Under the pieces are notes generated by a model, which had not been told where the DNA came from, did not search any database, and saw only the letters and a list, made by a program, of their open reading frames with translations. Position numbers and translations under genes: made by a program. A DNA stretch of 64,000 nucleotides from Acutalibacteraceae bacterium (GTDB lineage: Bacteria > Bacillota > Clostridia > Oscillospirales > Acutalibacteraceae): the NCBI GenBank assembly GCA_045642065.1, contig JAZUID010000013.1:292-64291 (forward strand). The letters are read 5' to 3'. Of this stretch, positions 8,003 through 12,786 are shown piece by piece (within the stretch, counting starts at the first letter, position 1; every line of letters starts with the position of its first letter).

Positions 8003-8087
8003 TGGTGGGAGAGGGTGGATTCGAACCACCGAAGCTGAAAGCAGCAGATTTACAGTCTGTCCCCTTTGGCCACTCGGGAACTCTCCC
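8003..8087 (-). tRNA. tRNA-Tyr (anticodon GTA), CCA encoded
   Basis: The reverse complement GGGAGAGTTCCCGAGTGGCCAAAGGGGACAGACTGTAAATCTG...GGTGGTTCGAATCCACCCTCTCCCACCA folds as a cloverleaf with a long variable arm. The anticodon loop is CTGTAAA. Confidence 0.9.
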
Positions 8088-8288: not shown

Positions 8289-8364
8289 TGGAGCTGGTGG
8301 ACGGACTTGAACCCCCGACCTGCTGATTACAAATCAGCTGCTCTACCAACTGAGCTACACCAGC
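8289..8364 (-). tRNA. tRNA-Thr (anticodon TGT), CCA encoded
   Basis: The reverse complement is GCTGGTGTAGCTCAGTTGGTAGAGCAGCTGATTTGTAATCAGCAGGTCGGGGGTTCAAGTCCGTCCACCAGCTCCA. A TTGACT-17-TATATT promoter lies just upstream on the minus strand. Confidence 0.9.
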
Positions 8365-9074: not shown

Positions 9075-9473
9075 ATGTTTGAAGGAAAGCCTTATTTTTA
9101 CGGAACAGGCAGAAGAAAAAGTTCTGTTGCCCGTGTTCGTGTTTACAAAGGTACAGGTAAGATTACTATTAACGATCGTGACATTGACGATTATTTTGGT
9201 CTTGAAACCTTAAAGCTTATCGTTCGTCAGCCATTGGCTCTTACAAACACAGGCGATAAGTTCGACATCGTTTGCCGTGTTGCAGGCGGTGGCGTTACAG
9301 GTCAAGCAGGTGCAATCCGCCACGGTATTTCGCGTGCTCTTTTACAGTTCGACGGCGAGCTTCGTCCGGAACTTAAGAAGGCAGGCTTCCTAACACGTGA
9401 CCCACGTATGAAGGAAAGAAAGAAATACGGTCTTAAAGGCGCCCGTCGTGCACCGCAGTTCTCGAAGAGATAA
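9075..9473 (+). CDS. rpsI: 30S ribosomal protein S9
   Basis: [12 protein letters not shown] at the N-terminus and [14 protein letters not shown] at the C-terminus. A hairpin terminator follows (ATCCCGATACC/GGTATCGGGATTTTT). Confidence 0.95.
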
Positions 9474-9582
9474 TCTGTATTTTGCAAAAAATTATCCCGA
9501 TACCGTTTGGTATCGGGATTTTTGTTTAAAAAGTTGACAAAACAAATTATAATAGTGTAGAATAGATCTAAAATCAATCATG

Positions 9583-11352
9583 TTAATTAAATTCACCAAA
9601 TCGTTTCGAAGCTATATCAAAATATTCTTTTTCTAACTCAATACCGATAAACTTTCTATTGTTTTTAATTGAAGCAATACCGGTTGTACCGCTTCCCATA
9701 AAGGGGTCAAGAACGAGATCATTTTCATTGGTGTGAATTTTAATGATATCTTCCATTAATTTTAAACTTTTTTGTGTGGGATGTGATGTGCGTTCTTTAC
9801 CAGAAACAGTTGCTGTTTCATAACAAGAGCGAAGATAGGATTTATCCTTTGGTTTATTAAAAACCCATTTAGAGTTTTTCTTCACAGCCCAAATTGCAAA
9901 TTCAGTATCTTGAACGTATCTTCTTTCAATATTTCTTGGCATAGGATTTGTTTTTTTCCAAATCAAAATATCTTTAACATGCATATTACATAATTCAAGC
10001 TTATTTATAATAAAACTAATGAATTTGTAAGAACAAAAAATTATCATTGAACCGTTTTTATCAAGAATTTCTGAGTAGTCGCTTATCCAACTATATAGAT
10101 CAAAATCTTTATCCCATTCACCGAAATCAACACCTTTTCTAGGATTTTTCATTGAAGAAAAATTATTGTTTTGGGAAATGTTATAAGGTGGATCGGTTAT
10201 AATATGATTAACAGTAATGTTATTGAGCTTTAATTCCTTTATCAATGAATAAGAGTTACCACAAAACAGTTGATAGTTTTTTGCTTCAATCTGGTCTGTA
10301 TTATAAGCTTTAACAATAGCTTTGCCAATTGCTTTTGCTAAAAGTGGTGGGACGGCATTACCGATTTGTTTACAAATAGCAGTTTTAGGACCATAAAAGA
10401 CAAAATTATCACTAAAGCTTTGGATGCGAGCTGCTTCGCGCGGAGTAATAGCTCTATTTAAAAAAGGGTGTGAGTTTCTACCGTTTGAAGGAGTATCAAA
10501 TCTTGTGTCAATTGTAGGGCTAAATGTGTCCCATTGCAATCTTGACCAAGTTGTTGAAAATTTTTGTTTGCCTAATAGTTCTATTGGCAAAGCGCTTTTA
10601 TCGCCTTCGGGTGGTATCATATTTAATTTTTCCAAAGCGGTTTTCGAATGACTTGTGGCAATATGGTTATAAAGTTGTTTTCCCCTAAGTTTCTTTTGGT
10701 AATCGCTTTTTGGATCGGATTTATAGTTTGATACAAATGAGCCTTCCCCAGAGTTAAGATAAGCCAAATCAGAAATAGCATCTCTAACTGTAACAATTTT
10801 AGAATTGCCATTTGGCAAATCAATACTTTTAGTAAGAGATCCAATAATAAATGCTCTTTCTCTGCTTTCTGGCACGCCAAAATTCTTTGCATTAAGGACT
10901 CCAACATTAACAATGTAACCTAAAGAAGAAAACTTGTTTAGTATTTGATTTTTAAAATATCCGTTTTCCGAATTTAAAATGTTTTTAACATTTTCTATTA
11001 CAAATATTTCTGGGCGTATTTCTTTAACAAGATCAAGATATTCTAAAAACAAGAAATTTCTAGGATCATCCATTCCTAAATTTTTACCCTTAAGGCTAAA
11101 TCCTTGACAAGGCGGTCCACCAACAATCATATTAACATTTTTCCTTTTTGCAAGATCTATTATTTCTTTTTTTACATATTTATTTTTTATATCACCCGTA
11201 ACTACTTGTGCATCAGGAAAGTTTTTAGAAAATGTCTCTGTTGCATATCGATCAAAATCTAAAGCCACAACAGTTTTTATGTTTTTAACGCTATCTAATC
11301 CCGAAGAAAATCCGCCAGCGCCAGCAAACAAATCTAAAACATTAAATTGCAT
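9583..11352 (-). CDS. Fused DNA methyltransferase: N-terminal C5-cytosine MTase + C-terminal beta-class N4/N6 amino-MTase
   Basis: The m5C motifs are DLFAGAGGFSSG (I), GGPPCQGFS (IV), ENV (VI), SRERAF (VIII) and QIGNAVPP (X). After a short linker come IITDPPYNI (IV), HPTQKS and DPFMGSGTTG (I), in the order typical of N6_N4 MTases. The likely true start is the ATG at 11352 (MQFNVLDLF) with GGAGGGG upstream. The longer ORF-track start at 11433 has no RBS. Confidence 0.85.
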   Translation of the reverse strand: MQFNVLDLFAGAGGFSSGLDSVKNIKTVVALDFDRYATETFSKNFPDAQVVTGDIKNKYVKKEIIDLAKRKNVNMIVGGPPCQGFSLKGKNLGMDDPRNFLFLEYLDLVKEIRPEIFVIENVKNILNSENGYFKNQILNKFSSLGYIVNVGVLNAKNFGVPESRERAFIIGSLTKSIDLPNGNSKIVTVRDAISDLAYLNSGEGSFVSNYKSDPKSDYQKKLRGKQLYNHIATSHSKTALEKLNMIPPEGDKSALPIELLGKQKFSTTWSRLQWDTFSPTIDTRFDTPSNGRNSHPFLNRAITPREAARIQSFSDNFVFYGPKTAICKQIGNAVPPLLAKAIGKAIVKAYNTDQIEAKNYQLFCGNSYSLIKELKLNNITVNHIITDPPYNISQNNNFSSMKNPRKGVDFGEWDKDFDLYSWISDYSEILDKNGSMIIFCSYKFISFIINKLELCNMHVKDILIWKKTNPMPRNIERRYVQDTEFAIWAVKKNSKWVFNKPKDKSYLRSCYETATVSGKERTSHPTQKSLKLMEDIIKIHTNENDLVLDPFMGSGTTGIASIKNNRKFIGIELEKEYFDIASKRFGEFN

Positions 11353-11373
11353 TTGAATATCCCCTCCACAAAG

Positions 11374-11400
11374 CTGAGGTACCAAATTTTTGTACCTCAG
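11374..11400. promoter_or_regulatory. Perfect 9-bp inverted repeat in the divergent M/R intergenic region (possible operator)
   Basis: CTGAGGTAC-caaattttt-GTACCTCAG lies between the MTase start (11352) and the nuclease start (11485). Confidence 0.4.
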
Positions 11401-11484
11401 ACAAATTATATCACTAAAGCAAATTAATTGCAATACTTTAGATTAAAAAATATTAATATTAACAATTGAAAAGGAGAGAAATTT

Positions 11485-12744
11485 ATGAATTTTTTAAATG
11501 TTAGTGATTTTTTAGCAAAGGAAGTATCACCATTGGTACTTGGAGCTTTTTTTAGCAGAAGAATCTTTTCAAATAATGGGGAATATATTTTTGCATATAC
11601 TTCTTATAAGAAATCCGTAAAAATTAATACAAAGAAAGTAATTTTTAATACATATAATAGGCAGTATATAGAAATTTTAAATGAAAAGAGCTATCCTTTT
11701 TCGTTTTGGGCAACTAAAGAAGAAGTTTTAAATAATACAAGCATATTAAAGCACGAACTAAAGGGTCAAGCTTTTTTTGTCTTGAAGAACGATGTTAAAA
11801 TATCACCAGAAAGTTTTTACAATAAATTATATGTTAAAATCATATCAACTTGCGAATGGGCTTTCGACGAAAAATTGAATGAAAACAAGAAGGCTTTTAT
11901 ACGCGGATATATGGAATTGCGCGGAAGCATAGACACAAATCGAGATTATATTACACAAGATTATTTTTATAATACTCGCTATGAAATAAAAAAAGCAAGA
12001 ATATTTGTCGATTTTTTATCGGTGCCACACAATGTGATAAATATTAATTTTAGAGAATTACAAAAAGACTTTTATTCGGGGAAAAACAAAAGAAACACTC
12101 AGTTTAGGATAGATTTATGGTGGTATATGGAAAACATAGGAATTATCAATGCATATAAGGCGGAGATTTTTGCTTTATCTCGTGGATTAAAATTGAAATT
12201 GTCCAAAGAAAAAATTTATTATTTCTATAATGACGGCAAAGAGAGAAGAAAAATTAATAACTTGTTAGATGAAAGATTGAATTTTTATGCTTCTAATGTT
12301 TTATTAAAAGAGATAACAACGGATGACATAGCAAAAATGAGAAAAGAATTAGGATTTGATTCTGAAAGAAAAGTTGTAAGGAGCAACGCCTTAGTTGAAG
12401 CAATTAAATATTTTACACCAGACGAGTGTGTGTGTTGCAAACATAAGTATAACATTGCTGACAGATCATACATAAATAAAAACACAGGTAGATATTATTT
12501 TGAAATTCATCATGTAATATCTATAGGCGGAAACAAAGAACTTGATGATGAGAACAATATGGTTAAATTGTGCCCGACTTGTCATAGAAATTTAAAACGT
12601 GGATCTGGGACAGAAGAAGATCAAAGATCATTGATTAGAGACATATTTAACAATTCACCAAATACATTAGATTTTGCAAAACACTTTTTTGATACGAATG
12701 ATATCGAAAAAATTATTTATTTAACTTATAAAAACTTAAAATAA
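11485..12744 (+). CDS. Putative restriction endonuclease with a C-terminal HNH (beta-beta-alpha-Me) nuclease domain
   Basis: The C-terminus is CVCCKHKY...YFEIHHVISIG...NMVKLCPTCHRNL, i.e. CxxC...HH...N...CxxCH, a zinc-stabilised HNH motif. I recognised nothing in the N-terminal ~310 aa. An AGGAGAG RBS is present. The gene is divergent from the MTase. Confidence 0.65.
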   Translation: MNFLNVSDFLAKEVSPLVLGAFFSRRIFSNNGEYIFAYTSYKKSVKINTKKVIFNTYNRQYIEILNEKSYPFSFWATKEEVLNNTSILKHELKGQAFFVLKNDVKISPESFYNKLYVKIISTCEWAFDEKLNENKKAFIRGYMELRGSIDTNRDYITQDYFYNTRYEIKKARIFVDFLSVPHNVININFRELQKDFYSGKNKRNTQFRIDLWWYMENIGIINAYKAEIFALSRGLKLKLSKEKIYYFYNDGKERRKINNLLDERLNFYASNVLLKEITTDDIAKMRKELGFDSERKVVRSNALVEAIKYFTPDECVCCKHKYNIADRSYINKNTGRYYFEIHHVISIGGNKELDDENNMVKLCPTCHRNLKRGSGTEEDQRSLIRDIFNNSPNTLDFAKHFFDTNDIEKIIYLTYKNLK

Positions 12745-12746
12745 TA

Positions 12747-12774
12747 AAAGCCCACACTTTAAATGTGGGCTTTT
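12747..12774. terminator. Bidirectional hairpin terminator
   Basis: AAAAGCCCACA-ctttaaa-TGTGGGCTTTT lies between two convergent genes. Confidence 0.75.
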
Positions 12775-12786
12775 AATTTTATTTGT

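Follow-up and report, generated by a model that had tools for sequence, protein, structure and literature searches.

A probable CCTC/GAGG-specific restriction-modification module with a fused two-domain methylase in an Acutalibacteraceae bacterium, and a conserved target-site dyad at its predicted methylase promoter

Restriction-modification systems directed at the short asymmetric sequence CCTC/GAGG have been described in several bacteria. In MnlI of Moraxella nonliquefaciens and HpyAVI of Helicobacter pylori (CCTC(N7/N6)), GAGG carries N6-methyladenine (m6A) and CCTC carries C5-methylcytosine (m5C), and the two methyltransferases are encoded by separate genes. In other hosts a single methylase serves both strands. 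Here, a stretch of 64,000 nucleotides from an Acutalibacteraceae bacterium (assembly GCA_045642065.1, contig JAZUID010000013.1, positions 292 to 64,291 of the forward strand), referred to below as the window, was analysed with respect to a two-gene block at 9474-12786 which encodes a fused DNA methyltransferase of 589 amino acids (aa) and, divergently, an HNH nuclease of 419 aa.

The closest experimentally studied relatives come from Staphylococcus haemolyticus and from mycoplasmas. The S. haemolyticus methylase, which together with its nuclease is represented by the PADLOC profile models PDLC03279 and PDLC03514, marks both strands on its own, as G(m6A)GG and methylated CCTC; when expressed in Escherichia coli it protected plasmid DNA from MnlI, and target-edited minicircles prepared via methylase-expressing E. 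coli gave 2.2-fold more transformants (PMC13417997). The DCM3 protein of Mycoplasma hominis has 592 aa, with a C5 domain at 1-360 and a beta-class N6_N4 domain at 361-592, lies next to an upstream 409-aa protein with a C-terminal HNH domain and correlates with m5C in CCTC (PMC10305163). For Mycoplasma agalactiae, one homologous methylase (13377_16.426/M.MboH1ORF688P) has been reported to yield C(m5C)TC and G(m6A)GG, and the authors cited the prototype MnlI, CCTC(N)7, as well as M.Cal5972II of REBASE (bioRxiv 10.1101/2021.06.21.448925).

Judged by homology, the block in the window is very likely a Type IIS-style restriction-modification module that is complete and probably active and belongs to this MnlI/HpyAVI-isospecific family, with 5′-CCTC-3′/5′-GAGG-3′ as its probable target. 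An initial annotation made from the sequence alone had proposed a Type IIS-like module with MnlI as the analogue. The published S. haemolyticus and Mycoplasma systems show that this analogy was apt and place the module in a known family; together with the PADLOC pair of models and the homology to M1.HpyAVI described below, they sharpen the specificity to CCTC/GAGG. The novelty implied at that stage was not upheld, as the same two-gene architecture is already represented among models derived from REBASE and has been studied experimentally in S. haemolyticus and Mycoplasma; the system is a further member of a known, experimentally supported family. What appears to be new, a modest and testable addition, is a family-wide dyad of presumed target sites at the predicted transcription start of the methylase gene.

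The methylase gene and its two domains are located as follows.
9583 to 11352 (stop codon included), minus strand: fused DNA methyltransferase gene, 589 aa (open reading frame scan, Pfam, PADLOC).
10285 to 11352, minus strand: C5-cytosine methyltransferase domain, aa 1-356 (PF00145, TIGR00675, PDLC03234).
9592 to 10272, minus strand: beta-class N6-adenine methyltransferase domain, aa 361-587 (homologue of M1.HpyAVI).

The open reading frame (ORF) of the methylase extends over 9583..11433 on the minus strand, and its first ATG at 11352, with GGAGG upstream, gives the 589-aa product, which is identical to protein P0121 of an NCBI contig in the protein collection. The C-5 methylase family PF00145 was matched at aa 3-348 (E 1e-75; TIGR00675, E 2e-66), and the motifs FAGAGG, GGPPCQGFS, ENV, RE..RIQSF and GNAVPP can be read in the translation in the canonical order I, IV, VI, VIII, IX, X. 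The second half matches PF01555 (N6_N4_Mtase) at aa 381-582 (E 1.5e-46) and has DPPY ahead of FMGSGTTG, the order of the beta class; the earlier description of a C5 methyltransferase fused to a beta-class enzyme was thus confirmed. The MTase_II model PDLC03279, which has 587 positions, aligns with aa 1-586 of the methylase over model positions 1-585 (E 6e-230). Since the separate models PDLC03234 (aa 2-354, E 6e-112) and PDLC03371 (aa 355-587) each cover one half, the methylase represents a fusion of two enzymes which are encoded by separate genes in other systems. Nearly all of the best 120 matches in the methylase search are themselves full-length fusions of about 590 aa.

In the comparison with solved structures, aa 361-587 matched M1.HpyAVI (PDB 5HEK/5HFJ) with E 8e-88 and 59% identity. 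M1.HpyAVI of H. pylori is a dimeric beta-class N6-adenine methyltransferase acting on GAGG, for which D29 and E216 are essential; P41 widens its specificity to GGAG, GAGG-only variants have Ser at that position, and the enzyme of strain 26695 methylates GGAG and GAAG as well (PMC5173035). The window methylase keeps residues equivalent to D29 and E216, in its DPPY and GIE motifs, and has Ser at the position of P41. The chemistry of this domain had been left as N4 or N6 by the initial annotation. Amino-methylation of one strand stands, and by homology it is assigned to N6 of adenine rather than to N4.

With regard to the known systems, the window module resembles that of S. haemolyticus in having one methylase, presumably for both strands of GAGG/CCTC, next to an HNH-type nuclease. 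The hosts differ, the likeness is one of matches to profile models, and the cytosine mark of S. haemolyticus was called N4-methylcytosine from single-molecule real-time sequencing data (PMC13417997), whereas the window domain is of the C5 type. M. hominis DCM3, the M. agalactiae enzyme and M.Cal5972II are of the same kind as the window methylase, m5C in CCTC and m6A in GAGG being assigned to one enzyme. MnlI and HpyAVI share the presumed target and the two chemistries with the window, where the methylases are fused with the C5 domain first. HpyAV/Hin4II (CCTTC 6/5) likewise combines a fused C5 and N6-adenine methylase with a nuclease of about 419 aa containing an HNH motif (PMC2816704). This system was set apart by the published sizes, as its methylases have 810-860 aa (or 387 for M1 and 445 for M2) and its HNH motif lies at 294-320, compared to 589 aa and 342-367 in the window, where the amino-methyltransferase half is moreover of the M1.HpyAVI type. 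MboII was rejected as the closest relative because M.MboIIA (1G60) matches only the C-terminal 68 aa with E 8e-16, far weaker than M1.HpyAVI. The methylases of the GTCTC-core systems Alw26I, Esp3I and Eco31I which are likewise Type IIS enzymes with an HNH nuclease, reportedly consist of an N-terminal m6A part and a circularly permuted C-terminal m5C part; judged by this domain order they were discarded as well, the window methylase having C5 first and a half of the M1.HpyAVI type.

The nuclease gene and its parts are located as follows.
11485 to 12744, plus strand: restriction endonuclease gene, 419 aa (ORF scan, PADLOC PDLC03514).
11485 to 12234, plus strand: N-terminal domain, about aa 1-250, presumed to recognise DNA (alignment, AlphaFold).
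12421 to 12594, plus strand: HNH (beta-beta-alpha-metal) nuclease domain with a CxxC...CxxC zinc site (PF01844, invariant columns).

PF01844 (HNH) at aa 332-370 is the only Pfam match of the nuclease, in agreement with the earlier view of a divergent partner with a C-terminal HNH domain and an unrecognised N-terminal region. The REase_II model PDLC03514 matched aa 79-412 with E 8e-49. The homologue search returned 427 clusters, of which the 120 best are mostly 400-437 aa long, the closest among the matches listed showing 70% identity. In an alignment of 39 homologues, relative to which the nuclease ORF is full length, C315, C318, H342, H343, N358, C363, C366 and H367 are invariant; by their positions and motifs these residues are read as a complete HNH site and a four-cysteine zinc site. 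The HNH domain matched those of EcoKMcrA (6GHC; E 1.5e-5 with the single sequence, 1.8e-7 with a profile) and of the pyocin AP41 DNase (E 5e-3), the only solved-structure relatives detectable by sequence. For MnlI a colicin-like HNH domain has been reported (cited in PMC2816704 and PMC5714182), with which these matches agree.

Pfam searches of the N-terminal 300 aa gave no family in any of the 39 homologues at E values up to 10. The motifs LGAFFSR, FIRGxxELRGSID and NFRELQ..RNTQ.R of this region are strongly kept in the family. The AlphaFold model of the nuclease has a mean predicted local distance difference test score of 83.6 (72-96 in blocks of 10 residues over aa 1-250) and a predicted template modelling (TM) score of 0.77, and shows an alpha/beta N-terminal domain. 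The best non-HNH matches of this domain in Foldseek are weak (E 0.04-0.1, TM score about 0.4), namely WhiA (3hyi; E 0.04, probability 0.82) and the monomeric LAGLIDADG enzyme I-DmoI (E 0.055, probability 0.75). No sequence link to LAGLIDADG proteins was obtained by Pfam for the 39 members, by profile search of the PDB or by hhalign against I-CreI (probability 0.65%). As a lead only, the N-terminal domain may be a degenerate LAGLIDADG-like recognition domain; more tentatively, CCTC might be read by a double LAGLIDADG-like scaffold which has lost its catalytic activity and is joined to the HNH domain. A LAGLIDADG-like recognition scaffold was not found described for a nuclease of this family in the searchable literature.

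The pairing of the two genes is a property of the family. A C5 plus N6_N4 fusion of 589-604 aa is the neighbour of each of the nuclease homologues with 64%, 44% (recorded as Ureaplasma parvum) and 40% identity, and in every metagenome locus that is long enough the fused methylase lies adjacent to the nuclease gene. Among these homologues divergent, methylase-then-nuclease and nuclease-then-methylase arrangements occur. One Ureaplasma-like locus (L085, 3218-6266), whose nuclease shows 44% identity to that of the window, has a tandem methylase-then-nuclease operon in which the nuclease gene overlaps the methylase end by 32 nt, as opposed to the divergent genes of the window; its stored gene does not give the query with translation table 11, presumably due to the Mollicutes genetic code.

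Target frequencies in the genes themselves were analysed for 18 distinct full-length systems. Both genes together contained 53 CCTC/GAGG sites, compared to 168 for CTCC, 118 for CCCT and 156 for TCCC, and CCTC/GAGG was about 2.8-fold depleted versus composition-matched permutations, with a nominal P value that is inflated by codon effects and shared ancestry. Both coding sequences of the window are devoid of CCTC/GAGG, with about 8 sites expected from mononucleotide composition, and the three sites in 9474-12786 are all located in the 132-bp intergenic region between methylase and nuclease. The depletion in the genes supports CCTC/GAGG as the family target by an independent in silico route.

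Two of the three intergenic sites make up an inverted pair close to the start of the methylase gene. The elements of this region are the following.
11375 to 11399, without strand: dyad T-GAGG-N15-CCTC-A, a conserved element and proposed operator (GAGG-N15-CCTC at 11376-11398).
11405 to 11433, minus strand: sigma-70-like methylase promoter with TTGCAA, a 17-nt spacer, TATAAT and TG before the -10 box (predicted from 10/12 consensus matches only).
11428 to 11456, plus strand: putative nuclease promoter with TTGCAA, a 17-nt spacer and TATTAA (read by eye; not called by the promoter scan).

The dyad of the window follows the methylase -10 box at a distance of 6 nt, precedes the methylase ATG by 23 nt and forms an inverted repeat with arms of 13 nt and one mismatch. 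In 40 loci (27 distinct sequences) the same dyad with an exact 15-nt spacer precedes the methylase start codon by 6-25 nt; among these loci are methylase-then-nuclease and nuclease-then-methylase layouts, and some whose nuclease identity is as low as about 30%. Over the 521 kb of loci retrieved, a spacer of 15 occurs 41 times, any other spacer between 5 and 30 only 0-5 times. The consensus is T-GAGG-n-A-N11-T-n-CCTC-A, and in most of the 27 distinct loci the dyad is preceded, at 2-7 nt, by a -10-like box. In a covariation test at the RNA level 77.3% of cells were paired versus 78.5% in shuffles; in 15/24 sequences there is no pairing at the position bordering on the tetranucleotides, and the next position is a conserved A/T. 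In the absence of RNA covariation the conservation appears to act on the symmetry of the DNA dyad. A conserved target-site dyad or operator was not found described for this family in the searchable literature.

The dyad is also present upstream of the methylase gene in the Ureaplasma-like locus. It was not seen in sub-branches whose methylase gene directly adjoins the nuclease gene end, nor in a distant methylase-then-nuclease branch. Distant nuclease branches (L115-L120, L139, L167 and L133-L146; about 26-40% identity, with an N-terminus that often cannot be aligned) have retained a methylase, fused or adjacent, and are without the GAGG-N15-CCTC dyad; their specificity or their mode of control may differ.

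Own recognition sites in the methylase promoter or initiation region are known from CfrBI, AhdI and LlaDII, and such promoter target-site regulation of restriction-modification systems has been described as rarely used (review PMC12707154). The window shares this placement of own target sites, and its arrangement resembles that of CfrBI, in which methylase and nuclease promoters are divergent, closely apposed and mutually exclusive. What sets it apart from all three is an inverted pair of asymmetric 4-bp sites, always 15 bp apart, which follows the -10 box and is conserved throughout the family. By its sequence, the palindromic TTGCAA could act as -35 hexamer for the methylase promoter and the putative nuclease promoter alike.

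From homology and the published homologues the following mode of action is proposed. The N-terminal C5 domain would methylate a cytosine of CCTC and the beta-class domain the adenine of GAGG on the opposite strand, so that a single 589-aa protein would protect an asymmetric site on both strands. The N-terminal domain of the nuclease would recognise the unmethylated site, and its one colicin/McrA-like HNH domain would cut nearby. Methylase and nuclease genes would be transcribed divergently from closely apposed promoters, which are known from consensus matches only. The dyad would cover about +1 to +25 of the methylase transcript, and the methylase may sense its own activity or occupancy there and turn down its promoter as soon as protection of the cell is achieved, either by occupancy, M1.HpyAVI being a dimer (PMC5173035), or by methylation. 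Given the divergent layout, the dyad may additionally shift the balance toward the nuclease promoter. For the dyad to have a regulatory role, with the methylase down-regulating its own promoter, the chances are judged to be slightly short of even, by its position and by analogy with CfrBI, AhdI and LlaDII. A control common to the whole family is somewhat less likely than not: the dimeric fused methylase, or its methylation, would read the protection state at a dyad of fixed geometry and set methylase expression and, in divergent layouts, nuclease expression too.

The module predicts a barrier to transformation and phages in this uncultured organism, which methylation that protects from MnlI would bypass. 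If the regulatory reading is true, the dyad would represent family-wide use of the rarely used own-site promoter control, with a strict 15-bp geometry. The practical value is limited, and as a restriction-modification system the module is routine, both the target and the fused methylase with two chemistries having been documented already.

Several points weigh against this interpretation. CCTC/GAGG is not clearly avoided in the 64-kb host window (observed/expected 0.90), and since GAGG resembles the Shine-Dalgarno sequence, statistics of this motif are complicated. The specificity is transferred to this organism by homology, and the nuclease has at most 70% identity to any match listed in the collection. 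The case for a regulatory role of the dyad is one of conservation and position only. The beta-class methyltransferase dimers studied so far are not known to engage two sites rather than one, which makes simultaneous binding of both half-sites hypothetical.

If the family is assigned correctly, the target could still be GGAG, GAAG or CCTTC instead of CCTC/GAGG, since GGAG and GAAG are additional substrates of M1.HpyAVI from strain 26695 and a few substitutions can change specificity, with nuclease identities of no more than 70% to the homologues among the matches listed. However, the methylase matches the GAGG/CCTC-validated model PDLC03279 over its whole length and has Ser at the P41 equivalent as in GAGG-only variants, GAGG and CCTC are invariant in the dyad, it is CCTC and not CTCC, CCCT or TCCC that is depleted in the genes, and the HpyAV/Hin4II methylases with their 810-860 aa and other layout argue against CCTTC; a different target is considered quite unlikely. 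The nuclease might be inactive or silenced and the methylase an orphan epigenetic regulator without restriction, as decayed and orphan restriction-modification systems are common and the m6A activity of the M. hominis homologue was not detected. The 419-aa product is also absent from the gene-position index, which has little weight because the identical methylase P0121 is absent from it too. An orphan is nevertheless unlikely, as the nuclease ORF is full length relative to the 39 homologues with all invariant HNH and zinc residues kept, has its own Shine-Dalgarno sequence and terminator, and is free of CCTC/GAGG, consistent with continuing selection. That the HNH protein is instead a methylation-dependent Type IV nuclease like McrA, and a neighbour of the methylase by chance, is highly improbable. 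Its best solved-structure match is EcoKMcrA and there is a weak match to the PADLOC mREase_IV model (E 1e-7), but the resemblance to McrA does not extend beyond the HNH domain, a far better fit is given by the Type II REase model (E 8e-49, aa 79-412), the pairing with the fused methylase is kept down to about 30% nuclease identity in three layouts, and a methyl-dependent nuclease beside a methylase making its substrate would be lethal.

As for the dyad, GAGG-N15-CCTC could be a feature of the RNA, i.e. a hairpin in the 5′ untranslated region (5′-UTR) or an anti-Shine-Dalgarno switch, and not a DNA operator. GAGG and CCUC are complementary in the manner of Shine-Dalgarno and anti-Shine-Dalgarno sequences, the element is located in the predicted 5′-UTR, and the arms in the window reach 13 nt with one mismatch. 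On the other hand, no covariation was detected and the paired fraction is at the level of the shuffles, a stem of 4 bp with a loop of 15 nt would be unstable, and the fixed spacer with symmetric T...A flanks points to a dimeric DNA-binding partner. A role at the RNA level is therefore unlikely, and the DNA dyad is retained as the proposed operator.

The block is located between rpsI and a Ca2+/Na+ antiporter gene and is delimited by two terminators.
9494 to 9519, plus strand: intrinsic terminator of rpsI with an 11-pair stem followed by a T-run, the left edge of the block.
12745 to 12775, both strands: bidirectional terminator common to the nuclease gene and the convergent antiporter gene (terminator scan of both strands), the right edge of the block.

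From the rpsI side, the methylase gene on the minus strand is followed by the divergent nuclease gene on the plus strand and then by the convergent antiporter gene. With 29.9% guanine-plus-cytosine (GC) compared to 40.9% in the rest of the window, 9474-12786 is the lowest-GC stretch of 3.3 kb in the 64 kb. The initial annotation had noted an AT-rich block bracketed by the rpsI terminator and a bidirectional terminator, with neither integrase nor flanking direct repeats; all of this was reproduced, as the ORF scan of the window gave no ORF of the integrase kind and the repeat search gave no convincing direct or inverted repeats flanking the block.

Horizontal acquisition had been suggested as well, together with a comparison of synteny, which was carried out. 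In a search of species-representative genomes with the antiporter protein, the best match showed 77% identity, and the relatives were metagenome-assembled genomes of uncultured Clostridia from gut and rumen, which carry the labels Eubacteriales, Acutalibacteraceae or Ruminococcaceae. In one of these (L003; antiporter 76%, rpsI 92% identity), rpsI is directly followed by the antiporter gene, with about 85 bp between the two stop codons and a single terminator. As rpsI directly abuts the antiporter gene there, the 3.3-kb module is read as an insertion at a variable intergenic site, with which its low GC agrees and which gives the earlier suggestion its support. The empty site in this relative is observed; the module would have been inserted between rpsI and the antiporter gene in an uncultured, Oscillospirales-like member of the Clostridia, the direction of the event being inferred. 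The boundaries of the insertion cannot be placed exactly, because the relative is too diverged and its terminator is non-homologous. Another related genome (L002) carries an unrelated 221-aa ORF at 9121-9786 at the same junction and no restriction-modification module there, so that the rpsI/antiporter junction looks like a recurrent insertion spot.

A plasmid or phage origin was rejected, as close relatives were not found in the plasmid, phage and IMG/VR collections: the plasmid collection gave three records only (best 32.5% identity over 62% of the query), the phage collection no relatives and IMG/VR two distant matches. In loci of a Hadza gut metagenome (L081-L084, at about 2468-2794; in L084 at 1450-1776) a module whose nuclease is 64% identical adjoins a 108-aa fragment of a phage integrase, which hints at past carriage on an integrative element.

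A few further observations were made in and around the block. Between the rpsI terminator and the methylase 3′ end, TTGACA and TAGAAT with an 18-nt spacer form a promoter-like sequence on the plus strand (9534-9563; 11/12 consensus), antisense into the methylase gene; it might drive an antisense RNA of the kind known from EcoRI-type control, or the match may be due to chance, the DNA being AT-rich. Genes for tRNA-Tyr (GTA; 8003-8087, minus strand) and tRNA-Thr (TGT; 8289-8364, minus strand) are located just upstream of rplM-rpsI, and the long ORFs listed over these positions are translations of the tRNA genes. Several 4-bp palindromes are scarce in the window relative to the Markov expectation (observed/expected: CTAG 0.06, GATC 0.33, GGCC 0.37, ACGT 0.38, CCGG 0.50, CATG 0.54). 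Taken together with the value of 0.90 for CCTC/GAGG, these ratios suggest that other restriction systems have long exerted pressure on this lineage and that the CCTC system arrived recently.

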